From positions 51,297-115,296 of the forward strand of contig DATMQI010000112.1 of assembly GCA_035567135.1 (NCBI GenBank): 64,000 nt of DNA, in the 5' to 3' direction. This document shows positions 18,087 through 60,018 of this stretch, piece by piece. Source of the stretch: Terriglobales bacterium (GTDB lineage Bacteria; Acidobacteriota; Terriglobia; Terriglobales; Acidobacteriaceae). Below the pieces are notes generated by a model. That model was given only the letters and a program-made list of their open reading frames with translations. It was not told where the DNA came from and made no database searches. The translations under genes were made by a program, and so were the position numbers. Position 1 is the stretch's first letter; the number at the start of each line of letters is the position of its first letter.

Positions 18087-18830
18087 TCACGCTTGCGGAA
18101 CCATCTCTGCGGACCGGGCCGCACTTAACGTCTTATTCGAGGGTTTCCGCAGCACCATCGTGAAGTCGGTGATGTCTGGATCAATGTATCCAAAACTCGC
18201 AAGCTTGAGCAGCGGTCCCAGGACGGTGTATGCAAAATTGAAGATCCAGTGCTTCTTTTTAACTCGGACCTGCACCTTTTCTTCGTACAGTTCGAGGTAT
18301 TCCAGCGTCAATTGGTTTTGTTGTGCAAAACGCTCCAGCGAACGGGGGGACATGGAATACTTCAAAAATGTGGGAAACGGAACATGCCCGGGCTTGCCCG
18401 CATTCTTGTTGCCCAGGATGCGACGATACACCAACACATGAAACCAATGAGGCGTATATTTCGTGACCATGCCCTTGATGGAGTTGACCACGGGGGCGCC
18501 CACGACGATGATGCCGCCCTCGCGGATCGCACGCAAGAAATTCTCCATCGCTCGGTCAGGATGCTCGAGATGTTCCAGAACGTCCCAGCAAAAAATAATG
18601 TCAAAAGAAGAGGGTTGTAAAGGGAAAGTCTGAATGTCGCCCAGGATCTTTTCGTGCAGGTCCGGATTATTGTCGAGCTGTTCCTGGCAGATGTCGATGC
18701 CGACGAGTTGGGTATTGGGACCGAGTCGAATATGACTTCGCGATCCCGCGCCAGCTTCAAGCACGCGCACGGTTCGGCCTTCCCTCAGCATCTGGTCGAC
18801 TAGGCACTGTACCGGGTCATCGCCAGCCAT
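18087..18830 (-). CDS. class I SAM-dependent methyltransferase
   Basis: Motif I VRVLEAGAGSRS and post-motif DIIFCWDVLEHLEHPDRAM. Confidence 0.8.
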   Translation of the reverse strand: MAGDDPVQCLVDQMLREGRTVRVLEAGAGSRSHIRLGPNTQLVGIDICQEQLDNNPDLHEKILGDIQTFPLQPSSFDIIFCWDVLEHLEHPDRAMENFLRAIREGGIIVVGAPVVNSIKGMVTKYTPHWFHVLVYRRILGNKNAGKPGHVPFPTFLKYSMSPRSLERFAQQNQLTLEYLELYEEKVQVRVKKKHWIFNFAYTVLGPLLKLASFGYIDPDITDFTMVLRKPSNKTLSAARSAEMVPQA

Positions 18831-18900
18831 AACAGTGTTTCTCCTCTGCAGGACGAAATAAGAGTCTGAGTTCGAGCATTAATTATGATGGTGGAAACCT

Positions 18901-19203
18901 TCAATCGGAAAAAACCCCATCGGCCTTGGTAAACTGGGTATCCTGCTTGCCAATTTGGGTACGTTGCCGTATAAGAGTGGCAATTTTCTCGATGCAGCGG
19001 AAGTTTTCGATCTCGAAGTCTTGTATATCGATATGGGTGTCAAAGTTTTGCTCGATGAATAAAAGCAACTCCACAAATCTCTGCGAATCCAGAATTCCCG
19101 TATTAAACAGATCGGTATCTACCGAGGGAACCTCTACGTGCAGAACCTCCGAAAACAGGATTGACAGCCGAGTTTGAATCCTCTTCTGATCGGGGTCTCT
19201 CAT
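18901..19203 (-). CDS. DltC-like acyl/aminoacyl carrier protein
   Basis: LFNTGILDSQRFVELLLFIEQNFD resembles the DltC phosphopantetheine site (GLLDSxGxVELL). Start taken at the ATG 19201-19203, preceded by GGAGG. The track start 19287 would overlap the upstream gene. Confidence 0.75.
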   Translation of the reverse strand: MRDPDQKRIQTRLSILFSEVLHVEVPSVDTDLFNTGILDSQRFVELLLFIEQNFDTHIDIQDFEIENFRCIEKIATLIRQRTQIGKQDTQFTKADGVFSD

Positions 19204-19223
19204 GTCAGTAACTCCTCTACCTC

Positions 19224-20156
19224 CTAGCAAACTTCTACTTCGACGAGCCGATCCCCCGGCTTCAGCAGGCCTTGGGCTGGAACACATCTGTCACTGAGTC
19301 GCAATTTCGTCGCCAAAATCCACTGGTCCCCGCAAGCCACTGCAGCACCGGAATCTGTTACCTCCCCGACCGTTCCGGGTGAGACATGGCAGTCAATGCC
19401 AGTCTTAAGCGCCTTCACTACCGCAACTTCTTGCACACCTAACCGGGTCCGAGGATGCCCCCAAGGCGAGTCGAAGGGCAGGTAATCACAGGCACGAACG
19501 AAATTGATTACCTTGGATGCGGGCCATTCCCAGCACATGCGACCCCGTTCCGGCACCTCTCGACCAAAGTATTGCCGGCTTGCCAGATCCTGGTTTACCG
19601 ACGGGATGCTCTCGCCAGCCGCGGCCACTTCAAGTAAACGCAGCAGGAGCGGAATACCTTCTCGAACGCACTTGAAGCTCAGGGAAAGCGCGGTATCCAC
19701 GTCCTCGATGGGAAAGGAGGATCGATAGACAATCGGGCCAGCGTCGATCTTAGGCACGATGCGATGGACCGTGACGCCGTGGTTTTGCTCACCCCGGAAA
19801 ATCGCCCAACTCACAACATTCAACCCCGCGTAGCGCGGCAAAGGTCCAGGGTGAAGGTTGAAGGCACCCAGCTTCGGTGCAGCCAACACGTCATCGTGAA
19901 TGACGTAGAGGGAATGAACATTCAGGAAAATGTCCACCGCCTCGGATCGCAACCGCTCGGACAAACTGGAATTTCTTACCAGGTTTGCAGGTAAAGTTTC
20001 AAAGCCAAGAGCCTGCGCAGAGTTCCACAAGTTGACTCGGCTTGTGCCCGGCTTCGGAGGCTCTGTAAGGACCGCAACAACCTGATGCTCACTCTGTGCC
20101 AGCGCGCGCAACATTTGCGCGCCGGCAGATTCTTCAGCTGCGAGAACTACTCTCAT
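19224..20156 (-). CDS. Fmt/ArnA-N-like formyltransferase
   Basis: The formyl-transfer site FNLHPGPLPRYAG (Asn and His) and KIDAGPI (Asp) are present, with a C-terminal Fmt-like domain. The ATG at 20154-20156 overlaps the upstream TAA (TAATG). Confidence 0.8.
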   Translation of the reverse strand: MRVVLAAEESAGAQMLRALAQSEHQVVAVLTEPPKPGTSRVNLWNSAQALGFETLPANLVRNSSLSERLRSEAVDIFLNVHSLYVIHDDVLAAPKLGAFNLHPGPLPRYAGLNVVSWAIFRGEQNHGVTVHRIVPKIDAGPIVYRSSFPIEDVDTALSLSFKCVREGIPLLLRLLEVAAAGESIPSVNQDLASRQYFGREVPERGRMCWEWPASKVINFVRACDYLPFDSPWGHPRTRLGVQEVAVVKALKTGIDCHVSPGTVGEVTDSGAAVACGDQWILATKLRLSDRCVPAQGLLKPGDRLVEVEVC

Positions 20157-21853
20157 TACTCTTGGGCGCTGACAGTCCAAGCGAGCCAAGGTTGTTTACA
20201 GGCTACTGCATCCGAGTCAGCCTCGCTGTTGTTGACAAACAACGCGGGCCCGCGCTTGACGCTCCACTTGATTTTATCTCCTGGCGCAAACGCTCTTACG
20301 ATTTCGGGACGATCAATTTTTCCGCTCGCGTTTTTAGGCAGTTGCATACATCGCAGCCAACGCGAGGGCAACATATAGGAAGGCAGCAGTTTGCCCAGCC
20401 TGTTCCCTATCTCCAACTCGCTCATTTGGCAGTGCTCCTGCAGAACGTAGGCGCAGGCGATAAGGTTGCCCTCGAAACTTTCGGTTGGAATGGCCACTGC
20501 GGCACATTCTTTGAGCTCTTTGAAGGTATTCAGGGCAGCTTCAATTTCACCTAGCTCGATGCGATAGCCACGGCTCTTAATCTGTGTATCAGCGCGGCCC
20601 ACGAAATAAACCAGGCCATCCTCCCCGATGCGCGCGCGATCACCGGTGCGATAGATCCGGTCGTTAGACCCGTAAGAAAGAAAAGCTGCACTCGTCTTTT
20701 CGACATCACGCCAATAGCCAGGACTTAGACCTACACCTCGAATATAAAGATCGCCGACTTCACCCTGCGGAACCGGGCGCAGCTCGGCGTCCAGCACAAG
20801 CAACTCTTCTCCGTCGCAACCAATTCCAATAGGAATCGGCTGACGGCTGTCGGTTGGACATCCCGGAACCGTGTGATAACTGCTGGCAATGGTGGTTTCC
20901 GTGGGCCCGTAGAGATTGGTAAAACTAACTCGTGGAAGACGCTGCATCCAGTACATCAAAGCCGGAGTGGGCAGTACCTCACCGCACCAGAGCAGACGTT
21001 TCAGCGCGGGAAAATCATTGAACTCCACCACATCGAACCTTGCCATGTAGTTCAGCACGGAGGGAACAGAGAACCACTGGGTCAGCTTCGAATCGCGTAT
21101 GAAGTCGGCCAGCTTATTGGGCAGCAAACTCAATTCCGGAGGAACCAGATGGAGCTGGGCACCAACGGCGAAGGCACCGAAAATGTCAAAGGTCGACAGA
21201 TCAAAGTGCAGAGGGGGATGACCTGAAATGCGATCATCTGACCCCATTCCGAAGTAACGAGTGGCCCACCGCACGAAGTGGTTTACGTTGGCATGCGTGA
21301 TGACAACGCCCTTTGGTTCGCCGGTCGATCCTGAAGTGAATAAAAGATGAGCAGCATCGTGCGAGCCATTCTCGTAAGGTAGCGGCTCACTTGAAAAGTT
21401 GCTGATATCTTTCCCGACAAACCGCGGCACAAAATTTCGGCAGTCCGGCGACGCTTCCATCCAGCCCACACCAATCGAATTCCGGAATTCATCCTGGGAG
21501 AATAAATCTTCCAGCAAATTGACCGAGGCTCCTGCGCCCAGGATGTAACGAGGCTCGCTCGATCTGATCACCTTGGCAACGCGAGGAGCCGGGCTTGCAG
21601 TATCGATCGGGACGTGAATGCAATCGGCCTTCAAGATGCCGAGGATCGCGATAATGGCCTCGGGACTCTTGGGGAGCGCAAAGCATACGCGATCACCTTT
21701 GCGGCAACCGGCCGCCTTGAGAAGGCGTGCGAGCCGGTTGGTTATTTCGTCCAATTGCCCATAGGTCAGGGTGCGTCCCTGCATCACGAGAGCTACCGCG
21801 TCGGGGCGGCGCTGAGCCTGGATCGAAACCGAATTCTGCAACAGGTCTGTCAT
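20156..21853 (-). CDS. stand-alone adenylation enzyme, DltA-like (D-alanine--carrier protein ligase family)
   Basis: A-domain cores LLFTSGSTGEPKGV, FHFDLSTFDIF, LLWCGEVLP (DltA-like Cys), NLYGPTE, YRTGDRA, KSRGYRIELGEIE and SGKIDR. No C or T domain. Confidence 0.85.
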   Translation of the reverse strand: MTDLLQNSVSIQAQRRPDAVALVMQGRTLTYGQLDEITNRLARLLKAAGCRKGDRVCFALPKSPEAIIAILGILKADCIHVPIDTASPAPRVAKVIRSSEPRYILGAGASVNLLEDLFSQDEFRNSIGVGWMEASPDCRNFVPRFVGKDISNFSSEPLPYENGSHDAAHLLFTSGSTGEPKGVVITHANVNHFVRWATRYFGMGSDDRISGHPPLHFDLSTFDIFGAFAVGAQLHLVPPELSLLPNKLADFIRDSKLTQWFSVPSVLNYMARFDVVEFNDFPALKRLLWCGEVLPTPALMYWMQRLPRVSFTNLYGPTETTIASSYHTVPGCPTDSRQPIPIGIGCDGEELLVLDAELRPVPQGEVGDLYIRGVGLSPGYWRDVEKTSAAFLSYGSNDRIYRTGDRARIGEDGLVYFVGRADTQIKSRGYRIELGEIEAALNTFKELKECAAVAIPTESFEGNLIACAYVLQEHCQMSELEIGNRLGKLLPSYMLPSRWLRCMQLPKNASGKIDRPEIVRAFAPGDKIKWSVKRGPALFVNNSEADSDAVACKQPWLAWTVSAQE

Positions 21854-22878
21854 TTCGCTGCTAACTGCGAAGCTTGAGAGAAGACGACGCCGATGTGTTC
21901 CAGCTCTTCTCGGGTCGGAGGGATATCGAGAATAAAGGTCAGAAACCCGCGTTCGATGTATTTCGCCAGCTCTGACGCAACGCGGTCGTAGCTTCCAACC
22001 AGGTAAGGACAGAAAGTTTTGTAGTTTTCAAATGGCCACAACCAGTACGCGCTGTTGTTGGTCTTGGTTTCGACAGCCATCTGAGAAAGTTGTTTGTGCC
22101 ATGCCGAGTCTGAGGTTTTCATGGCTAGCTGGTGGGTCAGTTGCCCTTTGCGATCGGCCGGAAACCGTGCTTCGGCGACAGTCCATGCTTGCTCTTCTGA
22201 TTCGCGAGCGATAACGCCGACCCGCATGCCTGATTTCATCCCGGACTGACGATTATCCGGTTCACAGGCCGCCGGTTGGGGATATTTGACCGCAAGAGCG
22301 CCGAGGGCAGCCGCGGCCGTCAAACCTGCCTCGGAAGAACCTGAAACGAAGACTCCCGGCATCAATTCAGGATCCAGGGGAGGAGTCAACCGAAGTTTGT
22401 CTACCACATAGAATTCGCCGTGGTAGCTCACCTGCGCATCACCTTTTAGCAATTCCTGAATAATGGTTGTATATTCGACGACACGGGCGTAGCGCTTGTC
22501 GTGTGGGGTGTTGTCATTGAGCGCAGCCAGGTCGTTCTTGAATCCGCCGGCTACCATGTTCAGATATACGCGGCGGCCGTAGAGGTGGCCCAGAGAGCTC
22601 ACCATCTTGGCTACCGCGTACGGATGCAGGTAGGCCGGTTGTACCGCAACCAATGGGCACAATCTCTGCGTGTTCTGAATGATGATTTGCGCTACTAGCC
22701 AGGGATCGACCAGCGAGTTGTCGGTGTAGATGAGAATTCCTTCGCATCCCGCTTCCTCGCTCCAGCGAGCTACATCGACGATATTTTGCAAGTAGGACTT
22801 GCGTTCCACAGCGCTCGATTGGGGCGCGGTAGCAAAAACACGCAGGTGGGTAAGGTGATGAGTACTACGGTTCATCAT
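21850..22878 (-). CDS. LLM-class (luciferase-like) flavin-dependent oxidoreductase
   Basis: TIM-barrel LLM pattern (ARWSEEAGCEGILIYTD..., LVAVQPAYLHPYAVAKMVSSLGHLYGRRVYLNMVAGG). Its stop overlaps the downstream ATG (ATGA at 21850-21853). Confidence 0.8.
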   Translation of the reverse strand: MMNRSTHHLTHLRVFATAPQSSAVERKSYLQNIVDVARWSEEAGCEGILIYTDNSLVDPWLVAQIIIQNTQRLCPLVAVQPAYLHPYAVAKMVSSLGHLYGRRVYLNMVAGGFKNDLAALNDNTPHDKRYARVVEYTTIIQELLKGDAQVSYHGEFYVVDKLRLTPPLDPELMPGVFVSGSSEAGLTAAAALGALAVKYPQPAACEPDNRQSGMKSGMRVGVIARESEEQAWTVAEARFPADRKGQLTHQLAMKTSDSAWHKQLSQMAVETKTNNSAYWLWPFENYKTFCPYLVGSYDRVASELAKYIERGFLTFILDIPPTREELEHIGVVFSQASQLAAK

Positions 22879-22923: not shown

Positions 22924-24171
22924 CTACTTACCGGCGGTTTCCAGCATGATCGGTTTATTGCCGATGGTCACTGAGGCAGTTTTCGCAGCCAGCGGAGTGG
23001 AGGCTCCGGAGATATCCCGATAACTTTTGAAGCCGGTCGCGTCAAAGCTCGAGGTTTTTTCGTACTCGTCGTCCCAAACGATTTTGCCGTTGTAAACCGG
23101 CCCTTCAATTTTGCACGTCCAGATGTGATTTTTCGCTGCGCACCCGGAGACGGTGTGCCCGAGCAGCCATTTGTGGACTTCTCGATAAGCGGCTCCTGCC
23201 GGCAATTCACCAGTCGACTCATGCCACATGGAACCGCAGCAGGTTCGTGGATTTCCGTCATACATGTACCAATAAACCCGCCCTACGCCGGCTGAGGCCT
23301 GGAGCACATAGTAACGAACCACGAAGGCGGCCGCCTGATCAAAGCCCTGCCAATTCGCGTAATCGGTTCTGGACCAACTGCCCTCGGTGTTCCAGATAGG
23401 CTTGGACGCGAGCGCTGGATAACGGGCGACCTTCTCTTTAATTTTGTCGAAACTCTCGAGAACCGCGCCCTCGGGAATGGGATGTCCGCCGGGGAGAACA
23501 GCAGGAGAGTAACCATGCCATGCAATGATGTCAGCATACTGCCCGCCGCCGGCTGCGAAGTAATGGTCGAAATAGGGACCGGCTCCAGCTTCCGGGGTCA
23601 GCACCAGAGCGCTGGGATCTACCTCTTTAATGACTGCGGCGGCATCTTTCTCCATGCGCACCATCTGCGCATCTTTGCCATTCCAGAAATTAAAGCCACC
23701 GGGCTCGTTCCAAACGCCCCAATATTTAATCTTGGCATAGCCGGAACCCAGATGCAGGTTGTGGGTCACGATGGATCGGACAAAGGCCTTCCATAGTTCG
23801 TCGGAGCCGCCACCATCCGCGGATAGGTCGCGCGGGGGACTGCATTCGCAGTCCGCGTGAGGTCCCGAGGAAGCCCATACTGGCGTCTTGCCAAAGGTGT
23901 AAACCACATCGTCAATTCCGTTCCGCTTGGCGGTCGCGAGCCAGTCATCCAAACGCTTCCAATTGCAATTCGGGCCGGTCGGGCACAAATGCGCCCAACC
24001 CGTCGCCGTCCCCCACAAACGAATACTGCCGACCGGTACATTCGAGTTAATCGAGGCCATGCGGTTGAAGTGCATGCCGAAGAATGTGGGTGTTATTGGA
24101 CCTTGGGAGAGGCAAGGGATTGCGAGCGCGAGAATCAAAACGAACCTGAGCAAAGGTCTCATCGTTTGCAT
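22924..24171 (-). CDS. secreted clan GH-A-like glycoside hydrolase (paralog of 46866..48191)
   Basis: Signal peptide (LLRFVLILALAIPCLSQG). YWGVWNEPGGFNFWNG has the NEP acid/base motif, and WNTEGSW is a candidate nucleophile Glu. The start is uncertain (24171 or 24162). The track start 24213 overlaps the upstream gene. Confidence 0.65.
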   Translation of the reverse strand: MQTMRPLLRFVLILALAIPCLSQGPITPTFFGMHFNRMASINSNVPVGSIRLWGTATGWAHLCPTGPNCNWKRLDDWLATAKRNGIDDVVYTFGKTPVWASSGPHADCECSPPRDLSADGGGSDELWKAFVRSIVTHNLHLGSGYAKIKYWGVWNEPGGFNFWNGKDAQMVRMEKDAAAVIKEVDPSALVLTPEAGAGPYFDHYFAAGGGQYADIIAWHGYSPAVLPGGHPIPEGAVLESFDKIKEKVARYPALASKPIWNTEGSWSRTDYANWQGFDQAAAFVVRYYVLQASAGVGRVYWYMYDGNPRTCCGSMWHESTGELPAGAAYREVHKWLLGHTVSGCAAKNHIWTCKIEGPVYNGKIVWDDEYEKTSSFDATGFKSYRDISGASTPLAAKTASVTIGNKPIMLETAGK

Positions 24172-24193
24172 TCGTCTTTCAGCAGTCGGGGGA

Positions 24194-24817
24194 TCAGGAG
24201 CGGGCATAAGCAATGAGATTGAGCCCGAAAGGTCCAGCCGCCTCGACGTGAGCCCCGGGCAACATTTGTTGCAGTTCGCGAGCAGATACTAGCCGGAGTG
24301 GCTCCCAACTCCGCATGTGTCCGAAAGAAAGATGAATTGCGATTTCCTGCATCCGCTTCGGCAGTAGATGGTAGAACGGCAAATAGGTGTGGGGGTCGAG
24401 AAAGAAATGCTTGTTCGGTGTGGACAGAAAGTAGCCGACACGCGCGACACGCTGCATTTCCTTGGCGAATTGCTGCTGCTTCGCGAGGTCGCCAACATGC
24501 TCCAGCACCGCATTGGAGAAGACCCAGTCAAAGCTGCGATCCGGATATGGCAAGGAACATCCGTCTGCGACTTCCACAGTGACGTTGGCTGCAGGTTTCT
24601 CGCGAGTGTTACAGTCGGGATCGCAATTCACCACCACGACGGTGTGAAACCGCTCGCGAAGGCGATTCCATTCGCCCGCAATTCCGGGTGAGCCGCCAAC
24701 ATCGAGCAGTGACATCGAACTGTCCGGCTGCATGATCTCAACCGCCGTCTGAGAACGGCTGGCGCGCAACCGAGCGTGGACTGGGCTGGTGAGCCTAAGG
24801 AGCAGAGGCGTGGACAT
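24194..24817 (-). CDS. class I SAM-dependent methyltransferase
   Basis: Motif I LLDVGGSPG and WVFSNAVLEHVGD. ATG at 24815-24817 preferred. The track uses the TTG at 24862. Confidence 0.75.
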   Translation of the reverse strand: MSTPLLLRLTSPVHARLRASRSQTAVEIMQPDSSMSLLDVGGSPGIAGEWNRLRERFHTVVVVNCDPDCNTREKPAANVTVEVADGCSLPYPDRSFDWVFSNAVLEHVGDLAKQQQFAKEMQRVARVGYFLSTPNKHFFLDPHTYLPFYHLLPKRMQEIAIHLSFGHMRSWEPLRLVSARELQQMLPGAHVEAAGPFGLNLIAYARS

Positions 24818-24909
24818 TCGGTGGACCTGACCTTCCTTCGTGAGTCGGAGTGTGTTCCGCAATTATTTCAGCGGAACTCGAACCTATAGGTGAACGATTG
24901 TTAACAACG

Positions 24910-26004
24910 TTAGCGATGCAGCGACGACTCGGCCGGCGAGGTCTTCTTTTTTTGCCACGAGAACGATCGGTTGGTAAGCCTGCGATAACTTTCCCACACC
25001 GGAAGCGGGACAAATGAGTACGTAAGTGGAATGATGAAGTACCACACGCTGAGAATACGATACTTGATCCCGTCCCAGGCTCGCTCTGGTATCGAAGGCG
25101 TTTCTACGCTTCCTTCGAGCGATACCGGATACACTGGCCAGCCTCCATTCTCCTGTTCGCGCCACAGAGAAATGTAGCGTGCAATCTTAGCCTTCATTAC
25201 TGGCGAGAGGCTCTCCGAATTTCGTCGGAACCCGTGAATCTCTTTGCTCTTTACTAATGAATGGTGACCCGCTTCGTCGATCGCACTTCGATCGGCCCCA
25301 TCGAGTATCGTCATCCTCGAATCAAAAGGAATCCGCAAGAAGTCGCAAACGCCTTTCATGACCGCGGTTGGTTCGCTAACGAGCTCTTCGTAGTGAACTT
25401 GGTGAACTGGAAATCGGTGTCGCAGCAGCCAGTCGCACTCACGTTTCAACTTCCGATATCCCAGCAGGGCGCGAAGAGTGATTCCCTTGCGGCTGAAAAA
25501 CGTCCGTTCCTCGCCGGCCTTCGCGATACTTTGACAGATGCTGGTTAAGTCTCGCCAAATGATGATGAATCTTGCGTTCGGAAAAGTACCGGCGAGATGA
25601 GACAGCAGATCGAAGTAGGTGGGAGATTTGCCGCCCCAGATGGTCGCGCCTTTTTTTTGCTCGCAGTATTCCCGCTGCACTGCTTCTAACGCGCCCTTCA
25701 GGTCGTGGATATTTTCAGGGATGTGGCTGCTATCGATTTTGTGGCGTGTAATTGCGCCATTAAAAAAGTCCCACTTGGTAAGCCAGTTGGATGTCTTACG
25801 CCGCACCCAAAACAAAGGGCGCAAGAAAACAAGGTCGTCTTCGTACGTTAAGGCAATTTGTGGATGCTGATTCAACAAAGCGTATAACAATGATGTTCCA
25901 GATCGCCAGATTCCCACCACGAACAACGGCCCATCGGCAATTATCGCTGGCTCCTCGGCGTTTAGCCGAGCGGTTTCCACAGATGGCATCACGAGTTCGG
26001 GCAT
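24910..26004 (-). CDS. sulfotransferase-family protein (Sulfotransfer_3-like)
   Basis: PAPS loop FVVGIWRSGTSLLYALL and FIIIWRDLTSICQS, with a hydrophobic C-terminal segment. ATG at 26002-26004 (preceded by GAGG) preferred over the TTG at 26034. Confidence 0.75.
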   Translation of the reverse strand: MPELVMPSVETARLNAEEPAIIADGPLFVVGIWRSGTSLLYALLNQHPQIALTYEDDLVFLRPLFWVRRKTSNWLTKWDFFNGAITRHKIDSSHIPENIHDLKGALEAVQREYCEQKKGATIWGGKSPTYFDLLSHLAGTFPNARFIIIWRDLTSICQSIAKAGEERTFFSRKGITLRALLGYRKLKRECDWLLRHRFPVHQVHYEELVSEPTAVMKGVCDFLRIPFDSRMTILDGADRSAIDEAGHHSLVKSKEIHGFRRNSESLSPVMKAKIARYISLWREQENGGWPVYPVSLEGSVETPSIPERAWDGIKYRILSVWYFIIPLTYSFVPLPVWESYRRLTNRSFSWQKKKTSPAESSLHR

Positions 26005-26069
26005 TTGTGCCTCAAGTTTTTTTTGAGATTGCAACTCTATCTAAAATGTTGCCTGCGTCCTGCCCGGAC

Positions 26070-43626: not shown

Positions 43627-43823
43627 GTGTCGATTCCCAGCCTCGGCCCAAGAGCCAAACTCTGCAAGTGTCATGGGCTGATCTCCTCCTCTAACCTCAA
43701 AATATTGGAACGTAGCCACAGATGTGACTCAGGTGTTACGAGGGGAGGAATGACTGAGAATAAAGTTGCCGTTGAAAACACTGTGCGGCGGCGACCTCCC
43801 GAGGGAAGTCGCCGCCGATTATT

Positions 43824-52323: not shown

Positions 52324-55125
52324 TCATCTGGCCTGCAAAGCGCGTCCACGGTGCTCGGATTCCATGCCAGCCTGGTCGATGCAATTTTTAAGGCATTCGG
52401 CCAGGGTGTTTACTTGCGGTTCAACCAACATGTCGTAATGGTCGCCGGGGATTTCGTGAATATCCAAACTGGAGATTAAACCATTCCAAGCGGCGAGAGG
52501 ATCTTCGGAGCTTCGCAAAGATTTTTCCGCAGCTCGTATGAGAGCAGCCTTGCCCGCGTACGGCTTTAGCTCATAGCGGTCGGCGGCCGTCGCGTTTGAG
52601 TCGCGTACGTCGCGCAACACTTGCGGCACCCGCCAGTTTTTCAGGCTACGGCGTATTCTCTTCCCGGCTATCCTGGGCAGGTCATGAACCCAATGCTGCC
52701 AAGTGGGGTGGAGCAGTAGACCGATCAAGGAGGTGCCCACGGCCTTCAAGTTTCCGGGATAGGTGTCGAAGAGCACCAGCAGGCCGACCTCTTGGCCGCT
52801 CGCGCGAAGCTGCTGCGCCATTTCGTAGGCGACCAACCCGCCGAAAGAAAATCCGCCCAGGAAGTAGGAACCTTCGGGCTGCAGGCTACGAATCTCATTG
52901 ATATAGTGTGCCGCCATCTCTTGAATGCTGGTATGGCAAGGATGCTTGCCGTCCAGACCTTGCGACTGCAATCCGTAAAAGGGATGGTCGGGACCCATGC
53001 GACGCCCCAGTTCATGAAAGCCGATCGCATTGCCCCCCACTCCGTGGATGCAGAAAAAGGGTGGCTCGGATCCGCTCGGCTGAATCGGCACCAGCGAAGA
53101 CCAATGATGCGACCATCCGTCCTGACGCAGAGCCGCGGCCAGTTGTTCAACGGTTGGGGATTCAACCAGCATCGCCAAAGGTAAATTCTTGCCGAGCACC
53201 TGGCCCGCCCGGTACATGAGTTTGGCAGCGAGCAGCGAGTGACCGCCAAGCTCGAAAAAATTATCTCGAGTCCCAATCCGCTTTTTACCGAGCACCTCTT
53301 GCCAAATCTTAATCAACTGTGATTCCAGAGCATCAGTTGCAGCGTTAGTCTCTCCCGAAACTTCAGCTTCAGGCGCCGGCAATCCACGCCGGTCGATTTT
53401 GCCATTCGGCGTCAAAGGCATCGCAGACAGAATCACGAAATCCGATGGCACCATGTGCTCAGGCAAATCGTTCCGCAAATAGCGGCGGAGATCTTGAACC
53501 GTGATCTTAGTTTGGTGCGCAGGCACGACGTACGCCACCAAACGCTTATCACCGCCTTCATCTTCTCTGGCGACGACGGCAACTTCGCGAAGCGCCGGAT
53601 GCTTGGCCAATGCGACTTCAATTTCTCCCAGCTCAATTCGAAATCCACGAATCTTGACCTGGTCATCGGTTCGTCCCACAAACTCAATTTCACCGGATGG
53701 AAGATACCGGGCAAGATCGCCGGTCTTATAGATGCGCGCGTCCGGGTCAGTCGAAAAGGGATCGGAAATGAACTTCTCTGCAGTCAACTCCGGACGATTC
53801 AGATAGCCTCGCGCCACACCGACGCCGCCAATATGAAGCTCTCCAGCCACGCCAATCGGAACCGGATTCAGTTCAGCATCGAGCAGGTAGATTCGCACAT
53901 TCGCCACCGGACGGCCGATGGGAATGTTCTCCGGAATCCGATCAAAATCAGATTTCGGCTCGTACACTGTCGCCGCGATACTGCCCTCAGTGGGCCCATA
54001 AGTGTTGACCCAACGTGCGCGACGCCCCGCAGAGCCAACCCACGCGGCGTATGCCTTTGCTGATACCTTTTCGCCACCGACGATCACCAGCCGTAGACCT
54101 TCGGGCGCCGGCTTTCTCAACTCCGAAATCTGGTGCATCCACTCATGCCAATATGCAGTCGGCAGATCGAGAACGGTTATGCCGTTCCGCTCAACCCAAG
54201 CAAGGAACTCTGGAACCGCGAGTGGCATCTCCTCCGACTTCATCACCAGAGTGGCCCCGCTGAGCCAGGTGATGAACATCTCTTCAACGGCAATGTCAAA
54301 GCTGACCGAACAGAACTGGAGCACGCGGTCGGCAGGGCTCATTGAATATGCCCGCGCCATATTGAGGTTGTAGTTCACCAATCCGGCATGCGGCAGCAGA
54401 ACCCCGCGCGGCTTTCCCGTGGATCCTGAAGTGTAAATAACGTACGCAATGTCGCTCGGCGCTACGCTGATGTTTGGATTGCTCCGAGGCGAGCTGTCGA
54501 GAGCTTCCGATTTCTCCGCCAGCACAAGCACTTCGCAGCCTGCCGATGTGTTCCCTGACAAAATGCCCCGCTCCGTAATAAGGAGTCGCGCGCCCACGTC
54601 GTGAAGCATGTAGGCAAGTCGTTCCTGGGGATACTTAGGATCGAGCGGAACACAAGCCCCACCCGACTTCAAGACTGCCAACACTGCTACTGCGAAATCG
54701 AGCGAGGGGTTCAGACAGATCGCAACTCTCTCATTCGGTCCGACTCCTCGCTCACCCAAATAATGAGCCAACTGGTTGGCGCGCGAGTTGAATTCGCAGT
54801 ATGAGAGCTGCTGGTCCTTCCAGATAACGGCTGCCCTTTCAGGCACGAGTTGCGCCTGGGCTGCCACCAGTTCGTGTAGGCATTTTTCGCGTGGGTACTC
54901 GCATGCCGTCTGGTTCCATTCAGTCAAGATTCTTCGCCGCTCCTCTTCCGTGAGCATACACAAATCCTGTTCCGGACCGCGCTCCGCGATCGGCATTTGC
55001 TCAGATGCAGGAGCGTGCGCCTTCGGCGGCAAAGATGTCCCGATGGGTATGTTCTCTGTTTGCATGGAGGGGCGAGGAACTAAAAAGACTAAGGGCCGTG
55101 TGAACCGTGAGGGAGCCTGCAGCAC
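52324..55125 (-). CDS. non-ribosomal peptide synthetase, A-T-TE (no condensation domain)
   Basis: A domain: IAYVIYTSGSTGKPRGV, VSFDIAVEEMF, NTYGPTE, GELHIGGVGVARGY, YKTGDLARY, KIRGFRIELGEIE and PNGKIDR. T domain: FFELGGHSLL. TE domain: canonical GGFSFGG, LFDT and PGDHYDM. GTG at 55125 or ATG at 55065. Confidence 0.9.
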   Translation of the reverse strand: MLQAPSRFTRPLVFLVPRPSMQTENIPIGTSLPPKAHAPASEQMPIAERGPEQDLCMLTEEERRRILTEWNQTACEYPREKCLHELVAAQAQLVPERAAVIWKDQQLSYCEFNSRANQLAHYLGERGVGPNERVAICLNPSLDFAVAVLAVLKSGGACVPLDPKYPQERLAYMLHDVGARLLITERGILSGNTSAGCEVLVLAEKSEALDSSPRSNPNISVAPSDIAYVIYTSGSTGKPRGVLLPHAGLVNYNLNMARAYSMSPADRVLQFCSVSFDIAVEEMFITWLSGATLVMKSEEMPLAVPEFLAWVERNGITVLDLPTAYWHEWMHQISELRKPAPEGLRLVIVGGEKVSAKAYAAWVGSAGRRARWVNTYGPTEGSIAATVYEPKSDFDRIPENIPIGRPVANVRIYLLDAELNPVPIGVAGELHIGGVGVARGYLNRPELTAEKFISDPFSTDPDARIYKTGDLARYLPSGEIEFVGRTDDQVKIRGFRIELGEIEVALAKHPALREVAVVAREDEGGDKRLVAYVVPAHQTKITVQDLRRYLRNDLPEHMVPSDFVILSAMPLTPNGKIDRRGLPAPEAEVSGETNAATDALESQLIKIWQEVLGKKRIGTRDNFFELGGHSLLAAKLMYRAGQVLGKNLPLAMLVESPTVEQLAAALRQDGWSHHWSSLVPIQPSGSEPPFFCIHGVGGNAIGFHELGRRMGPDHPFYGLQSQGLDGKHPCHTSIQEMAAHYINEIRSLQPEGSYFLGGFSFGGLVAYEMAQQLRASGQEVGLLVLFDTYPGNLKAVGTSLIGLLLHPTWQHWVHDLPRIAGKRIRRSLKNWRVPQVLRDVRDSNATAADRYELKPYAGKAALIRAAEKSLRSSEDPLAAWNGLISSLDIHEIPGDHYDMLVEPQVNTLAECLKNCIDQAGMESEHRGRALQAR

Positions 55126-55143: not shown

Positions 55144-56595
55144 TCAGGCAGCGCCGGAGCCGCGAAGCACTGCGGGGATTGTTCTAGCGAGAATTTGAAG
55201 ATCAAGCCACAAAGACCAGTTGCGAACATACTGAAGGTCCAGCTCCATCCACTGGTGGAAAGGCAGCGAACTTCGGCCGTTCACCTGCCACAGACAGGTA
55301 ATTCCTGGGCGCACACTGAAACGGCAACGTTGCCAGTCCTCGCCGACTTCGGTAAACAATTCGTAATCCCGCAACTGCAGGGGCCGAGGGCCGACTAGAC
55401 TCATATCGCCGCTCAGAACATTGAAGAGTTGGGGCAATTCGTCAATGCTCGTCTTGCGCAGAAACCTTCCAACCGGCGTGAGCCGGGGATCGTTCTTGAT
55501 CTTGAATACTGGACCAGAGACCTCATTGAGGTGTTCGATCTCACGCAGCTTGTCTTCCGCGTTCATCACCATGGTGCGGAACTTGAAGATGGTGAAGGTG
55601 CGTTTGTTGAGCCCCACCCGCTCTTGCGCGAAGAACACCGGTCCGGGGGTAGTGAGTTTTACCAGAACGGCGACCACCAAAAGTACCGGCGCCAGCGCAA
55701 TCAGCAGCAGCAGAGAAAGTGTGAAGTCCAGGGTACGTTTGATCACCGTAGGCCAGCCTTCTTCCATGCCGCTATAGTGGGTGATCAACGGAGATCCTTC
55801 GAACTCCGCCATCGAATTTATATTCCTGAGATTGAAAAGGTCCGGCATGCCCCGGATGATAATTCCCTGCTGCTCGCACATGGCCGCAATATCGGACGCG
55901 TGATCATGAAACGAACGCATGGGTATCGCGATAACCACTTCGTCGACTACGCTACGCCGCAAGAATTTGCGCAGATCCGTCAGGTTGCAACGCACCGTCC
56001 AACCGTTTTTTTCGACCTCTTCGATTCCGGCCCACGGGTTGTCGGCAAAACCGATAATCCGGTAACCCAGTTCCGGCCGGGATCGGATCCTCTTCGCAAG
56101 TTCAATCGCCCGTTGATTGGCTCCGACGATCAACATGTTCCGCAGATCGCGTCCGTCCCCGCGGATGCGGCGTAGATACGTGCGGATCGCAATTCGGACG
56201 CACACCGCGGCGCAAGTACTGAATCCCCAAAAGATGAATAAAAATTCCAGGTTCACCATTCGGAAGTGGAGAATGAAAGAAAACATCCCCAATACCAGAG
56301 CTGACAGCGAGGTCGCTTTGATTGCGTCCAGGGCCTCAGCCCGGCGGCTCGAGAGTCGTTTGGAACCGTACAAACCGAGCGTCGTGAAAATGAGATGCCA
56401 GATCCACAACAGCGCAGTAAACATTACGAAATTCTGCAGCTTGATCCGCATCTCGAGGAACTGGGTGAAGAATACCGAAGCGCCCATCGCCAGGTGAGGC
56501 AGCGTGGCCACTCCAAACGAGAGCGCCAGGATCAACAAGTCGAATACCTTGCTGGCACTGGTCAATACTCGGCGTTTCATCGATCCCATTGGCAT
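55144..56595 (-). CDS. polyprenyl-phosphate glycosyl-phosphotransferase (WbaP/EpsB-type priming enzyme)
   Basis: N-terminal TM helices and a CoA-binding-like linker. The C-terminal bacterial sugar-transferase domain reads KRTLDFTLSLLLLIALAPVLL...GPVFFAQERVGLNKRTFTIFKFRTM...SLVGPRP. Confidence 0.9.
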   Translation of the reverse strand: MPMGSMKRRVLTSASKVFDLLILALSFGVATLPHLAMGASVFFTQFLEMRIKLQNFVMFTALLWIWHLIFTTLGLYGSKRLSSRRAEALDAIKATSLSALVLGMFSFILHFRMVNLEFLFIFWGFSTCAAVCVRIAIRTYLRRIRGDGRDLRNMLIVGANQRAIELAKRIRSRPELGYRIIGFADNPWAGIEEVEKNGWTVRCNLTDLRKFLRRSVVDEVVIAIPMRSFHDHASDIAAMCEQQGIIIRGMPDLFNLRNINSMAEFEGSPLITHYSGMEEGWPTVIKRTLDFTLSLLLLIALAPVLLVVAVLVKLTTPGPVFFAQERVGLNKRTFTIFKFRTMVMNAEDKLREIEHLNEVSGPVFKIKNDPRLTPVGRFLRKTSIDELPQLFNVLSGDMSLVGPRPLQLRDYELFTEVGEDWQRCRFSVRPGITCLWQVNGRSSLPFHQWMELDLQYVRNWSLWLDLQILARTIPAVLRGSGAA

Positions 56596-56703
56596 AGTCC
56601 TGTCAGATGCGGTTTCTGTTCGCTGGGTACGGGACGGGGGAGTAGGCTATTGAATTCTCCTGTACAGAAAGGGGGGGGACAGAGAAGAAAAACCTGGTTC
56701 ATG

Positions 56704-56733: not shown

Positions 56734-56784
56734 TCGTGCGGAGCCGTACTCCGATTTGCTCGAAGTGCTGAACAATGTGCTGAA

Positions 56785-57543
56785 CTACAGCCGTTTGTAA
56801 ATGCTCTCGGGGATTGGGAAGGTCCGCTCGTTCAGGACGACTCCCAACACTCGCACATTCGATTCCCGGAGCTGTTGTACGGCCTCCCGCGCCGACTCCC
56901 GGCGGGTAGACGTCGCCTTGATCACCAAAACCACGCCGTCCAGCAGACTCCCGAAGGTCATCGTGTGATTACAAATATTCATGGGCGCAACATCCATGAG
57001 CACATAGTCGAACTCTGCGCGCAATTCCGAAATCCGCGAGCGTATTCTGCCGGATGCCACCAACTGCTGGGAATTTTCATTGACCGCGCCGCAACTCAGC
57101 AGCCAAAGATTCTGGCGCGATAGCTGGCGCGCATATTGACGAACTGGACCATCCCCGGCTAACGCGTCGGCCAGCCCAAAGTGATTCTCAACCCCGAATT
57201 GCTCATGCAGAGAAGGAGAGCTGAGATTTCCGTCCACGATACAAACCGAACCTCCGACCTGCGATGCCAGAATCTCGGCCGCATGGGCGCACATCCAAGT
57301 GCAACCGTTGCCCAATTCCGTACCTGTAAAAACTACGTGACGCGGCCCTTGCTCGCCCCCTACAAGGAACAGACGGTGTACCAGTTTGGTTACTTCTTCG
57401 CGCGCCATACCATGAATCTCTACAGTTGGAGTAGTAGGGGAAAGGTCCAGGGGAACGACCACTGTGGGTGCAGGCTCTGCGTCTGCACGAAGCATATCTC
57501 CGGCCTTGCCCACCTGGTATAGTAACTCGAAATTCTTACTCAT
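56785..57543 (-). CDS. BY-kinase-like P-loop ATPase (CpsD/CapB/Wzc C-domain family) with degenerate motifs
   Basis: Family fold and context: VVFTGTELGNGCTWM at the Walker A position, SVCIVDGNLSSPSL at Walker A', and FDYVLMDVAP at Walker B. It lies directly downstream of the PCP gene. Confidence 0.7.
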   Translation of the reverse strand: MSKNFELLYQVGKAGDMLRADAEPAPTVVVPLDLSPTTPTVEIHGMAREEVTKLVHRLFLVGGEQGPRHVVFTGTELGNGCTWMCAHAAEILASQVGGSVCIVDGNLSSPSLHEQFGVENHFGLADALAGDGPVRQYARQLSRQNLWLLSCGAVNENSQQLVASGRIRSRISELRAEFDYVLMDVAPMNICNHTMTFGSLLDGVVLVIKATSTRRESAREAVQQLRESNVRVLGVVLNERTFPIPESIYKRL

Positions 57544-57676
57544 GTTCGGTCCTCAGATTCCCTTTTCGTGACGGAGGTTAGTTTCGTCGGCTGCCCACTC
57601 TCTCATCAGAACTTGGAACGCGGTTCATGCGAATCAGGGAGTTGGGCAACTTTTGTTTCTGGTCGCAATGCAAGTA

Positions 57677-59281
57677 TCAATCGCTCTGCGACCGGGCAAT
57701 CGGGGAGATCGAAGAAGCGGGTTCCGGAGGTACAAATTCACGAATCCGGCCGTGCCCATTGCCATTACCGTTGCCGAGGTTCGACTGGAAGCTGTCTCCT
57801 TTACGGGGCACCGCAGCCAACAATGGAATGTCGAGTTCCGAGGCCACATCGGCAGGCGTGTGGAAGGCCGGATCCAGATGCTCCTGGATATAAACCGCTC
57901 CAGCCGCCACAGTACCAGCGACAAGCACGCCTAGCATCATTACAAGCAGAGGAGGATAAACCGGCAGCGTCGGCACCACGGGATTCTCCGCGACCGCGAC
58001 GTTCACAATCCGAGTCGAATCCAAAGCTTCTGCCATGCGTGCTTCTTCACGCTTGCGAAGGTACAGCAGGTAGCTTTCTTCGTCAGCTTTGTAGTTCCTT
58101 TCAAGATTTTGTTCGACAAGCCCCTTCTGAGCCAAGTCGCGGGATTGCTGTTCATACCTGGTCACAATCATTTGCATGGCTGATTCCTGGGCCTTCAACC
58201 CGGCATAGTCAGCCTTCGCCTTTGCCAGTTCTTCATCGACCCAGGCATAGGTTGGATTGCGATCGGTGGTTTGCTGCTTGATGGGCTTGGCTTCCTCCGT
58301 CGCGATGGAAGCTTTAGTGTCGTTAATCTCCTTGTCGACTTCCTGCACCAGAGGGTATTCCGGCTGATACTTTGTAAGCAGTTCGGTGCGCTTGTTTTCC
58401 AGGGTCATCAAAGTGTTCTTCAATCCCTGCAGCACCGGCGCGTCATCTTCCTCTCTCAAGGCAGTCGTCATACGCTCTGGCGTTAATCCTGCCTGTTTTT
58501 GCAAGGTATGGATACGCATCTCGGTCGCAGCGAGTTGCGCCCGGGTGGTCTGCAGGTTCAGATGGAACTCCGCCAGTTTCTGTAGAAAAAGGTCCCTCGT
58601 CACCGTGGGAGCGACGCCATTCTCCTCATTGGAAAAACTCTTCAGCTGCGCTTCGGCATCGGCAAGGTTTTTGGCGTAATGTTCCGTCTCCTGCGCGAAG
58701 AACTGATACTGTCCCGGAGGTGTATGCAGTTCCTTATATTTCGCGATGTAGGCATCCGCCAAAGTCTGAAGCACACGGACCGTCAACTGAGGGTCGCCCG
58801 ACGTGTAGCTGACGTCGATGAGGTTACTTTTCTTTTCCGGTTCGATCTTGAGGCTTCCCGCCAGACCGTTCACTGCCTTAGCGATCTTCTTCTCAGGCTT
58901 GGCCGGACCGAAAATATATTCGCCGAGGGACTTGTGATTGTACAATCCGCACGCAAGCACGACTTTGCGCAGAACGTCGGCGTCCTGCAGAAGTCCAACC
59001 TCCGAGTTCAACTCTTCTTCGGAAATCGTAGCGGCAACTGCGCCTGCCTTGTCCTTATCCGGGCTAACCGTCGCCTCTTCACGTTGGCGCTCCAACAAGA
59101 ACTTGGTGGTGGCGCGATACTGGGTCGGCATCACGAAGGCAAACAGAAACGCACCCAGCAGAACTCCAGAGAAGCAGAGGGTCGCTATCCGTTTTCGGCG
59201 AAAGGCGATGGCCAGCAGGTCGCGCAGAGATACGCTTGAAGTTACTTTGTCGGTCGGCGGCGCAAAATCGTAGTTGTTCAT
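57677..59281 (-). CDS. polysaccharide co-polymerase / chain-length determinant (Wzz/GumC-like)
   Basis: N-terminal Wzz segment with a TM helix (RIATLCFSGVLLGAFLFAF...YRATTKFLLE), a long coiled-coil periplasmic region, and a second TM helix (LLVMMLGVLVAGTVAAGAVYI). ATG at 59279-59281 (preceded by GAGG) preferred over the TTG at 59299. Confidence 0.8.
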   Translation of the reverse strand: MNNYDFAPPTDKVTSSVSLRDLLAIAFRRKRIATLCFSGVLLGAFLFAFVMPTQYRATTKFLLERQREEATVSPDKDKAGAVAATISEEELNSEVGLLQDADVLRKVVLACGLYNHKSLGEYIFGPAKPEKKIAKAVNGLAGSLKIEPEKKSNLIDVSYTSGDPQLTVRVLQTLADAYIAKYKELHTPPGQYQFFAQETEHYAKNLADAEAQLKSFSNEENGVAPTVTRDLFLQKLAEFHLNLQTTRAQLAATEMRIHTLQKQAGLTPERMTTALREEDDAPVLQGLKNTLMTLENKRTELLTKYQPEYPLVQEVDKEINDTKASIATEEAKPIKQQTTDRNPTYAWVDEELAKAKADYAGLKAQESAMQMIVTRYEQQSRDLAQKGLVEQNLERNYKADEESYLLYLRKREEARMAEALDSTRIVNVAVAENPVVPTLPVYPPLLVMMLGVLVAGTVAAGAVYIQEHLDPAFHTPADVASELDIPLLAAVPRKGDSFQSNLGNGNGNGHGRIREFVPPEPASSISPIARSQSD

Positions 59282-59295
59282 AAGTCTGGCCTCGC

Positions 59296-60018
59296 TCAAT
59301 TGATCGGCACAACTCCGCCGACACCATAGTTCGGGAAGAAACCTTTTACCTTCGAGATGCGGTTTTGAGGAACGTACAGCATGTCGCCGGGATGCAGAGT
59401 CGGATCTTCACGCAGGTTTTTGCTGTTTTGCATACTCTTCACGTTGAATACCTGAGAAGCGACCCATTGGTCCCCTGAGCGGCGGAACAAGACTACTTGC
59501 GAATGCTTGGCATCGTCAGTGAACCCGCCGGCGATCGCGATCGCTTCAGTCAGAGTTGTGTCTGCGCGCAGATCGTATTTACCGGGATGTCCGACTTTAC
59601 CGTTCGCGATGAAGTATGGCTTATTGAAATCTTTGAGCGTGACCGAAATGATTGGATCGTGCAGAACCTTGCCATAAGCATTGCGGATCGTTTCCGTGAG
59701 TTCAGGCACGGTCTGACCCTGCACCTTGGCTTCGCCGACGCCATATAACGCGACGAACCCGTCGGGTTGTACCGTCACCGCAAGCTGGTTATATTCAGGA
59801 CTCAACGGGAATGTGAGATCGAAGGAATCGCTGGGAGCCAGCCGGTAGCGTGGATCGCGTGTCCCAAATTGCGGCGCGGTGTTCGAGGTGGTGGAGGGTA
59901 CCGCTGGAGTCGACGCGGCGGTTAGCGCATTCGAATTTTGTGTTCCAATCTGAGCAATCGATTGTCCAGCCACAAAAATCAGTGCACCGCAAACGAACAG
60001 AACGCAATTCTTTTTCAT
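59296..60018 (-). CDS. Wza-like outer-membrane polysaccharide export protein (Poly_export + SLBB)
   Basis: Signal peptide. YRLAPSDSFDLTFPLSPEYNQLAVTVQPDGFVALYGVGEAKVQGQTVPELTETI is the Poly_export signature. The SLBB-like part reads GKVGHPGKYDL...TLTEAIAIAGG. Confidence 0.85.
   Translation of the reverse strand: MKKNCVLFVCGALIFVAGQSIAQIGTQNSNALTAASTPAVPSTTSNTAPQFGTRDPRYRLAPSDSFDLTFPLSPEYNQLAVTVQPDGFVALYGVGEAKVQGQTVPELTETIRNAYGKVLHDPIISVTLKDFNKPYFIANGKVGHPGKYDLRADTTLTEAIAIAGGFTDDAKHSQVVLFRRSGDQWVASQVFNVKSMQNSKNLREDPTLHPGDMLYVPQNRISKVKGFFPNYGVGGVVPIN

Follow-up and report, generated by a model that had tools for sequence, protein, structure and literature searches.

Bacteria of the order Terriglobales are among the most abundant in soil, and their extracellular polymers influence how soil aggregates, how it retains water, and how long its carbon persists. 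Exopolysaccharide (EPS) loci of the XrtA/PEP-CTERM kind (Haft's TIGRFAM sets) carry an AMP-ligase, an acyl carrier protein (ACP), a FemAB-like protein, and a deacetylase; to our knowledge, the function of this set itself is uncharacterized. A model proposed for carenaemin, a polyketide synthase/nonribosomal peptide synthetase (PKS/NRPS) product of Collimonas, has it attached to a lipid-linked oligosaccharide, with Wzx as its exporter, in analogy with peptidoglycan (PMC8313283). Here we analyzed a stretch of 64,000 nucleotides from a Terriglobales bacterium (GenBank assembly GCA_035567135.1, contig DATMQI010000112.1, positions 51,297 to 115,296 of the forward strand; hereafter, the window), which holds a Wzx/Wzy-type polysaccharide locus with NRPS genes embedded in it. 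We found that one NRPS module with adenylation (A), thiolation (T), and thioesterase (TE) domains (A-T-TE) belongs to the conserved core of the locus. Judging from the encoded enzymes, the product of the locus is probably a sulfated sugar polymer that carries amino acids and short peptides.

The locus resembles described Wzx/Wzy loci for EPS and capsules in that a priming transferase, a flippase-like protein, a Wzy_C protein, a polysaccharide co-polymerase (PCP), an outer membrane polysaccharide exporter (OPX), and a kinase-like partner are all present. It differs from them in that A enzymes, carrier proteins, condensation (C) and TE domains, a cytochrome P450, an FkbH-domain protein, and proteins of an orphan family, here called X, are interleaved with these genes, and in that there are only two or three glycosyltransferases. 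The genes were assigned from a map of open reading frames (ORFs) and from Pfam and NCBIfam scans of the ORFs of at least 100 amino acid residues, small non-overlapping ORFs being outside the scan. The original prediction, made from the DNA letters, had described a minus-strand string of 20 genes and a second one of 8 genes; our map reproduced both in the predicted order (Table 1), with the GT4 ORF starting at 40085, and all six start/stop overlaps on the minus strand were present where they had been placed. The four A enzymes and five carriers counted across the two strings were also confirmed, each carrier with its Ser motif (GGxSL in the three T domains and LDS in the two ACPs). As predicted, no phosphopantetheinyl transferase, MbtH-like protein, exosortase, RmlA, or RmlB was found among the scanned ORFs. 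Promoter and terminator scans of the window gave results at or below the shuffle expectation and are uninformative on operon structure or transcription.

The export machinery is encoded in the second string (60018 to 48209). The priming transferase scored 428.7 bits with TIGR03025 (cut-off, 295.55), which places it among the polyprenyl-phosphate priming enzymes. The matches of the PCP to Wzz (23.6 bits) and GNVR (24.2 bits) were weak, both slightly under the cut-off, and its score with pepcterm_ChnLen was 147 bits (cut-off, 279; E = 4e-43). The best NCBIfam model of the Wza-like exporter was pepcterm_export, also under the cut-off. The predicted bacterial tyrosine kinase (BY-kinase)-like protein showed the family resemblance but not the motifs of an active enzyme: its Walker-A site reads GTELGNGCT, without the Lys of the expected GxxxxGK[ST], and it has a single C-terminal Tyr instead of a Tyr cluster. 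From these residues, the protein probably serves the PCP as a pseudo-kinase partner, and it is kept in all related loci despite the lost motifs. For the predicted flippase, the window protein has 10 transmembrane segments but no Pfam match; among 15 orthologues, 3 matched PF01943 (best E = 3e-7) and 1 matched PF13440, and a profile of the orthologues had no match among PDB sequences. The PF04932 domain of the Wzy_C protein is also found in ligases, and the polymerase role is predicted from the domain. The A-T-TE gene between the priming transferase and the flippase is shorter in the public gene call (877 residues, start at about 54957) than the ORF that we used, and its product matches a protein of a Terriglobales MAG (metagenome-assembled genome), P0001, with 100% identity.

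To study conservation, one genome per GTDB species was scanned, followed by tblastn searches with all window proteins. In all 47 Terriglobia loci that contain A-T-TE, the priming transferase, and the flippase, the A-T-TE gene is found between the other two, with all three on one strand and with A-T-TE identities of 50-88%. The closer A-T-TE is to the window copy, the closer are the priming transferase (r = 0.85) and the kinase-like protein (r = 0.88); therefore, A-T-TE and the export genes were inherited together. EPS genes are absent from the neighborhood of the A-T-TE homologues of other phyla, whose identity is below about 48%. The OPX exporter, the PCP, and the kinase-like protein head the locus in all relatives, and the Sulfotransfer_1 gene adjoins the flippase in 43 loci. 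In total, the locus was found in about 50 species of uncultured soil Terriglobales, all represented by MAGs, and Candidatus Sulfotelmatobacter is the only named genus among them.

The original prediction had stated that a link between the two gene sets would be in doubt if the NRPS genes were absent or elsewhere in relatives that keep the EPS genes. For A-T-TE, this is not the case in any of the 47 loci. The larger NRPS block of the first string is joined to GT4 and CE4 in about 30 independent contigs but is missing from simpler variants. These contigs came from a metagenome scan seeded with the 403-residue X1 family, from which contigs of at least 12 kb were kept. They share the order GT4-CE4-(ACP1-FkbH)-A-T-P450-(X1)-C-A-T-TE-X2-(sulfotransferase)-LLM-A-Fmt-ACP3-(methyltransferase), in which LLM is a luciferase-like monooxygenase, Fmt a formyltransferase, and parentheses mark genes not always present, with protein identities of 50-90%. 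The minimal variant, L031, has the priming transferase, A-T-TE, flippase, sulfotransferase, and Wzy, and also keeps a second sulfotransferase, GT4, WecG, CE4, and a glycoside hydrolase (GH), without the larger NRPS block. By this absence, together with the fixed order elsewhere, the larger block behaves like a variable, serotype-like decoration module and not like an unrelated cluster. In relatives L002, L003, and L084, GT4, CE4, and the NRPS genes directly follow Wzy; therefore, the region from 40375 to 48191 of the window is a lineage-specific insertion. Together with the polysaccharide reading given below, we consider it fairly probable that both strings are one ancestral, vertically inherited Terriglobales locus.

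Specificity codes of the A domains were obtained by alignment to GrsA-PheA, which, as a control, gave back its own textbook code. All four codes start with D (Asp235) and end with K (the A10 Lys), and the two A enzymes run on TIGR01733 scored 461 and 370 bits (cut-off, 317). The code of the A-T protein, DAWFLGNVVK, is the canonical Leu code, and DAWFLGNVV was seen in 52 of 55 orthologues. The A-T-TE code is DIEDIGTIAK in the window and DIEDIG[TS][IV][CAS]K in 118 of 120 orthologues. Positions 239 and 278 are acidic, and the code matches the Lys code DAESIGSVCK at 7-8 of 10 positions, which suggests Lys or another cationic residue as the substrate. The C-A-T-TE code is DSVCIAEVWK (DS[VA]CIAEVWK across the orthologues), and that of the stand-alone A enzyme is DLFSLCLIAK, the same in 27 of 27 orthologues. 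The stand-alone enzyme has a DltA-like CGEVLP motif; its nearest solved sequence is LgrA module 2, and DltA matches too.

The C domain of the 1745-residue protein has HHIIFDG at residue 183, in agreement with the HHxxxDG motif. By contrast, in A-T-TE orthologues of about 1150 residues (P0018-P0116; for example in loci L003, L009, and L031) the C domain is reduced to its C-terminal half and lacks HHxxxDG, and in the window copy the remaining half is gone too. Therefore, A-T-TE loads and releases but cannot condense, and by its domain remnants it looks like a decayed C-A-T-TE termination module. Its thioesterase has GFSFG and the residues of a Ser-Asp-His triad. In the C-A-T-TE thioesterase, a Cys nucleophile (GLCVNG/A, at about residue 1180) replaces Ser and is kept in about 37 loci. 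Thioesterases with Cys are rare and are known from NRPSs that form beta-lactones or beta-lactams.

Several tailoring enzymes accompany the modules. The nearest solved relative of the P450 is BioI, an acyl-ACP P450, and the identity across loci is 72-96%. In NovH/NovI-type pairs, an A-T protein and a P450 hydroxylate a residue held on the carrier, and the A-T/P450 pairing of this locus fits this type. The FkbH-domain protein matches TIGR01686 over residues 209-536, with the N-terminal 200 or so residues outside the match; the ACP1 gene is 7 nt away, and ACP1 is 60-92% identical beside FkbH in relatives. The formyltransferase has the Asn-His-Asp residues and, in the PDB search, is similar both to the formyltransferase domain of ArnA and to Met-tRNA formyltransferase. 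The LLM protein has SsuD as its nearest solved relative, and its orthologues are 70-99% identical; a homologue search found only orthologues from the same locus type, giving no outside context for the set LLM-A-Fmt-ACP3. Formation of a hydroxamate by LLM and the formyltransferase was considered and dropped, as nothing supported it. No other proteins of the locus are as conserved as LLM and P450, with about 70-96% identity against 55-70% for A-T-TE, which indicates strong constraint on the oxidative tailoring steps. ACP3 probably starts at Met29 (about 19203) of the ORF in Table 1.

The glycan genes and the carrier genes are closely connected. CE4 and ACP1 overlap by 20 nt, and this overlap and that of GT4 with CE4 indicate that the glycan and carrier genes are translationally coupled. 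The CE4 deacetylase and the sulfotransferases have neither a signal peptide nor a transmembrane segment and are predicted to be cytoplasmic; decoration is therefore expected to take place in the cytoplasm, with intermediates that are still linked to a nucleotide or a lipid. In contrast, N-terminal signals were predicted in the GH-like, NHL, FG-GAP, and phosphoesterase proteins.

The two X proteins, X1 and the C-terminal domain X2 of the large NRPS, are 53% identical. Searches of Pfam, NCBIfam, and PDB sequences gave no usable match, the only one being PF13480 at E = 0.078, and X matched none of the Pfam NMT, NMT_C, and FemAB models or the PEP-CTERM FemAB model (TIGR03019). An AlphaFold (AF2) model of X1 built from 26 sequences had a pLDDT of 85. 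In a Foldseek search with this model, the best full-length matches were all N-myristoyltransferases (about 50 structures; E = 1.5e-13, probability 1.0, TM-score 0.50-0.56). According to the model, X is a two-lobed tandem GNAT protein with an N-myristoyltransferase-like fold, and the tandem-GNAT calls of the original prediction were thus right by fold.

The C-terminus of X is DGD[ASC]SL in 118 of 120 homologues. An X profile found 2,106 clusters at E <= 1e-3 among 1.84 billion representatives; among the 150 matches listed, nearly all reach the last one or two residues, including all four listed fusions. Three types of fusion were found: C-A-T-TE-X, a PKS ketosynthase (KS)-ACP-X, and CE4 deacetylase-X. 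In the representative library, P0399 (663 residues) is fused to the deacetylase and P0392 (1168 residues) to a KS-ACP fragment. In locus L144, the CE4 stop codon overlaps the X start codon. The fusions and this overlap connect X with donors bound to carriers and with a de-N-acetylated acceptor sugar. X2 is fused in the window and in L088, and L084, L086, and L092 have it as a gene of its own. An assembly artifact as the origin of the C-A-T-TE-X2 fusion was rejected, as an independent metagenome contig has the same 1737-residue ORF. X1 tracks FkbH (and ACP1, where covered): both are present in 8 loci and neither in 17 (8/8 versus 0/17), counts that were drawn from related loci and are not independent events.

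N-myristoyltransferase takes its acyl group from a pantetheine thioester and uses its own C-terminal carboxylate as the catalytic base. By analogy, we propose that X is an N-acyltransferase with phosphopantetheine thioester donors and its own C-terminal carboxylate as the base. The invariant free C-terminus is consistent with this role. If X needs such a base, this would also explain why X is always the last domain in the fusions.

We favor, with moderate confidence, the reading that the locus makes a Wzx/Wzy-type sulfated polysaccharide and that carrier-held acyl groups would be attached to the repeat unit while it is still in the cytoplasm, ahead of flipping. The glycan itself would be built by the priming transferase, GT4, and, probably, WecG. 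A-T-TE would load a cationic amino acid, most likely Lys, and its Ser-TE would pass Lys to the lipid-linked sugar. The A-T protein would load Leu, the P450 would hydroxylate the carrier-bound Leu, and the C domain would couple hydroxy-Leu to a second, C-A-T-TE-bound residue. The dipeptide may then be handed by the Cys-TE and the fused X2 to the amine that CE4 would unmask on an N-acetyl sugar. FkbH is predicted to load glyceryl-ACP1, from which X1 may move the glyceryl group to the sugar or to the peptide N-terminus. LLM, the stand-alone A enzyme, the formyltransferase, and ACP3 would produce a modified N-formyl-aminoacyl group, and sulfotransferases dependent on 3'-phosphoadenosine-5'-phosphosulfate (PAPS) would complete the unit together with methyltransferases. 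The finished unit would be flipped by Wzx, polymerized by Wzy, and exported by PCP/Wza. The original prediction of a polysaccharide decorated with NRPS-derived groups and sulfate is thus supported by synteny and fusions but is not proven.

Going further, we suggest tentatively, as less likely than not, that Terriglobales make a new class of hybrid biopolymer. Each of its repeat units would bear Lys, a hydroxy-Leu dipeptide with an N-cap, and a formyl-aminoacyl substituent, put on by a new family of NMT-fold transferases that use carrier proteins directly. If it is true, such a polymer with sulfate esters would be a zwitterionic, peptidoglycan-like matrix polymer.

Several points weigh against the decorated polysaccharide. 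No product chemistry is on record, all carriers of the locus being uncultured MAGs, and the acceptor of each transfer comes from fusions and gene order only. The FkbH/X1 co-occurrence counts are from related genomes, and the second NRPS block is missing from some relatives that retain the export genes. The Lys call comes from likeness to the Lys code DAESIGSVCK and not from a predictor, and the codes of C-A-T-TE and the stand-alone A enzyme point to no assigned substrate. Thioesterase domains usually free their products, and the Cys-TE suits a free small molecule equally well. The formyltransferase is as close to ArnA, a sugar-nucleotide formyltransferase, as to Met-tRNA formyltransferase, and the roles given to it and to LLM are guesses.

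In the main rival, which we consider unlikely, the products of the NRPS genes would be small molecules, free or glycosylated, for example an N-acyl dipeptide, a beta-lactone, or a glycosylated peptide, and would have only regulation or export through Wzx in common with the polysaccharide. TE domains, a P450, FkbH, and a conserved Cys-TE are hallmarks of natural-product clusters, and the second block is dispensable in some relatives. A PKS/NRPS product linked to a Wzy-dependent locus for glycosylation and secretion is also a published hypothesis (PMC8313283). However, the position of A-T-TE between the priming transferase and the flippase in all 47 loci speaks against a separate product, and the A-T-TE orthologues, without the catalytic C half, cannot elongate a peptide. 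Moreover, the CE4-X fusions and the CE4/X overlap indicate a sugar amine as the acceptor, and GT4, CE4, and ACP1 are translationally coupled. The Pfam and NCBIfam scans revealed no exporter dedicated to small molecules in the locus; Wzx, PCP, and Wza are its sole transporters.

A second rival accepts the decoration and changes the glycan, which would be short and linked to lipid or protein, as in an O-antigen-like chain, a glycolipid, or a glycosylated protein; the Wzy_C protein would then be a ligase. PF04932 also spans WaaL and O-oligosaccharyltransferases, NCBIfam gives the Wzy_C protein a single, faint match (TfpM), a PMT_2 GT-C enzyme adjoins the locus, and the BY-kinase-like protein appears inactive. 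Against these points, the OPX, PCP, and kinase-like partner that head the locus in all relatives are hallmarks of high-molecular-weight export, and we regard a short glycan as improbable, more so than the free small molecule. That the NRPS and EPS clusters are neighbors by chance, with no functional link, is supported only by the frequency of both kinds of cluster in Acidobacteria, and it is contradicted by an interleaved order shared by about 50 species and another 30 or so contigs, by genes that diverge together, and by the fusion or overlap of glycan and carrier-protein genes, so that we give it almost no weight.

Table 1. Genes of the polysaccharide locus and its probable extension in the window
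Feature	Positions	Strand	Basis and remarks
OPX/Wza-like exporter with signal peptide	59296-60018	-	Poly_export 53.8 bits (cut-off 28); SLBB above cut-off
PCP (Wzz/GNVR type)	57677-59299	-	2 transmembrane segments, one per end
BY-kinase-like P-loop protein, probably degenerate	56785-57543	-	TIGR01007 88.6 bits (cut-off 108)
Polytopic priming phosphoglycosyl transferase (WbaP/WcaJ type)	55144-56595	-	Bac_transf 238 bits; CoA_binding_3
A-T-TE single NRPS module	52324-55125	-	Pfam domains; 933-residue ORF
Wzx-like flippase	50815-52254	-	10 predicted transmembrane segments
Sulfotransferase (Sulfotransfer_1)	49825-50748	-	111.9 bits (cut-off 22); no signal peptide
Wzy_C-family polymerase or ligase	48209-49759	-	PF04932 55.4 bits (cut-off 31.7); about 9 transmembrane segments
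Insertion between Wzy and GT4	40375-48191	mixed	Three secreted-protein genes
Secreted GH-like protein	46815-48191	+	Pfam; within insertion
NHL propeller	43824-46361	-	Pfam; within insertion
Ig/ASH-repeat protein	40375-43719	-	Pfam; within insertion
GT4 glycosyltransferase	38790-40085	-	Pfam; stop overlaps CE4 start (GTGA)
CE4 polysaccharide deacetylase	37981-38793	-	PF01522 71.7 bits; DD and HxxxH motifs; no signal peptide
Carrier protein ACP1	37626-38000	-	GKLDSLG motif; no Pfam match
FkbH-domain protein, predicted glyceryl-ACP loader	35846-37618	-	TIGR01686 282.9 bits (cut-off 146.65)
A-T didomain	33835-35715	-	Pfam; code DAWFLGNVVK
Cytochrome P450, paired with A-T gene	32551-33789	-	PF00067
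X1, 403-residue stand-alone tandem-GNAT-family protein	31340-32551	-	Fold comparison
C-A-T-TE-X2 NRPS, 1745 residues	26070-31307	-	Pfam; X2 at about 26070-27158, extension of about 365 residues
Sulfotransferase (Sulfotransfer_3)	24910-26034	-	110.9 bits; after X2 in most related loci
Class I S-adenosylmethionine (SAM) methyltransferase	24194-24862	-	Pfam; elsewhere only in closest relative L088
Secreted GH39-like glycoside hydrolase	22924-24213	-	PF01229 26.2 bits (cut-off 26); signal peptide
Luciferase-like (SsuD-like) flavin monooxygenase LLM	21850-22878	-	PF00296; start overlaps A-gene stop (ATGA)
Stand-alone amino-acid adenylation enzyme	20156-21853	-	TIGR01733 370 bits (cut-off 317)
Formyltransferase (Fmt/ArnA-like N and C domains)	19224-20156	-	Pfam; Asn-His-Asp; TAATG overlap with A gene
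Carrier ACP3, DltC-like	18901-19287	-	LDS motif; PP-binding 30 bits
Class I SAM methyltransferase	18087-18830	-	Pfam; after ACP3 in L103, L109, L110
rmlD, short-chain dehydrogenase/reductase (SDR) epimerase/reductase, rmlC, secreted phosphoesterase with Ig domains	13496-17933	-	Pfam
Secreted protein, no assigned family	10317-11807	-	Probable locus extension
Third Sulfotransfer_1	9369-10274	-	Pfam; probable locus extension
NAD epimerase	7131-8099	+	Pfam; probable locus extension
WecG/TagA-family transferase	5693-6625	-	Pfam; probable locus extension

The locus probably extends past the start given in the original prediction, to WecG at 5693. In relatives L003, L010, L031, and L119, homologues of the genes from 5693 to 11807 lie inside or adjoin the locus; the homologues of the sulfotransferase at 9369 and of the protein at 10317 are upstream of Wza in L003 and L010. 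The polysaccharide-type genes in the flank and the shifted positions of their homologues indicate that the locus is rearranged and larger than the original prediction had it. On the other flank, a PMT_2 GT-C enzyme and a GH-like protein are encoded at 60573-63424. Just outside the locus are a LuxR-type response regulator (4657-5496, minus strand) and a protein with CarboxypepD_reg and Plug domains, similar to TonB-dependent receptors (2329-4644, plus strand). In relatives, a small HTH_8 protein precedes Wza; the small window ORF at 60145-60453 was rejected as this regulator, as it is unrelated to the protein of the relatives. In the insertion, the secreted proteins may be matrix-associated or polymer-processing. 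The homologues of the NHL and GH-like proteins take other positions in related loci, often past ACP3.

If the decorated polysaccharide is real, NRPS chemistry would serve a structural surface polymer and not a diffusible metabolite, and it would be a new route of glycan decoration beside the Dlt and MprF-type modifications of charge. A part of the NRPSs of Acidobacteria would then not belong to natural-product clusters, and the "NRPS" counts of genome mining would need re-interpretation. The presence of NRPS modules in the conserved core of a polysaccharide locus in about 50 species would surprise specialists of both fields. The X family (about 2,100 clusters, no Pfam model) offers a testable biochemical prediction and could become a tool for joining peptides to sugars. 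We found no description of this locus type or of such a polymer in the literature searched, most subscription journals being outside its reach; the one analogue met there was the carenaemin hypothesis.

Among known systems, the locus shares cytoplasmic sulfotransferases encoded within the locus with the sulfated cyanobacterial EPS synechan (Xss). With the XrtA/PEP-CTERM loci it has in common a ligase, a carrier, a tandem-GNAT-type protein, and CE4 in an EPS locus, but true NRPS modules with C and TE domains are present here. The lead toward the exosortase/PEP-CTERM system in the original prediction was borne out to the extent that the export proteins score best on models of the XrtA system, although all are far under the cut-offs. 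Membership in that system was rejected, since there is no exosortase in the window, the export proteins are under the cut-offs, and the TIGR03098 score was 240.7 bits against a cut-off of 592. As in the D-alanylation of teichoic acids by Dlt, a stand-alone A enzyme would load a small carrier and an aminoacyl group would reach a surface glycopolymer and alter its charge; in contrast to Dlt, transfer is predicted to be cytoplasmic here, via TE and X domains. Membership in the Dlt system was also rejected (DltA model, 299 bits against 476; DltC model, 39.8 bits against 68), and no MBOAT protein (DltB) or DltD was found among the scanned window ORFs.

The sequence of deacetylating a sugar amine and then re-acylating it is known from Nod factors (NodB, NodA, NodF, NodH, NodS), which are also sulfated and methylated, and from lipid A (LpxC/LpxD) and mycothiol (MshB/MshC/MshD). 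Unlike these pathways, the locus has no homologue of NodA, LpxD, or MshC; the proposed acyltransferase is X, and the donors would be NRPS-type carriers. In the N-myristoyltransferase, FemABX, and tandem-GNAT proteins, the two-lobed fold is the same as that of X over its full length, and X has an invariant free C-terminus as in N-myristoyltransferase; X differs from the latter in its low identity (10-13%), its bacterial origin, and its NRPS and EPS contexts. The carenaemin model (PMC8313283) concerns two separate loci and a small diffusible product and is a hypothesis only, whereas here one conserved, interleaved locus includes polymer export. What is new in this locus, otherwise of the known Wzx/Wzy kind, is thus a putative NRPS-based decoration system together with a new family of candidate transferases.

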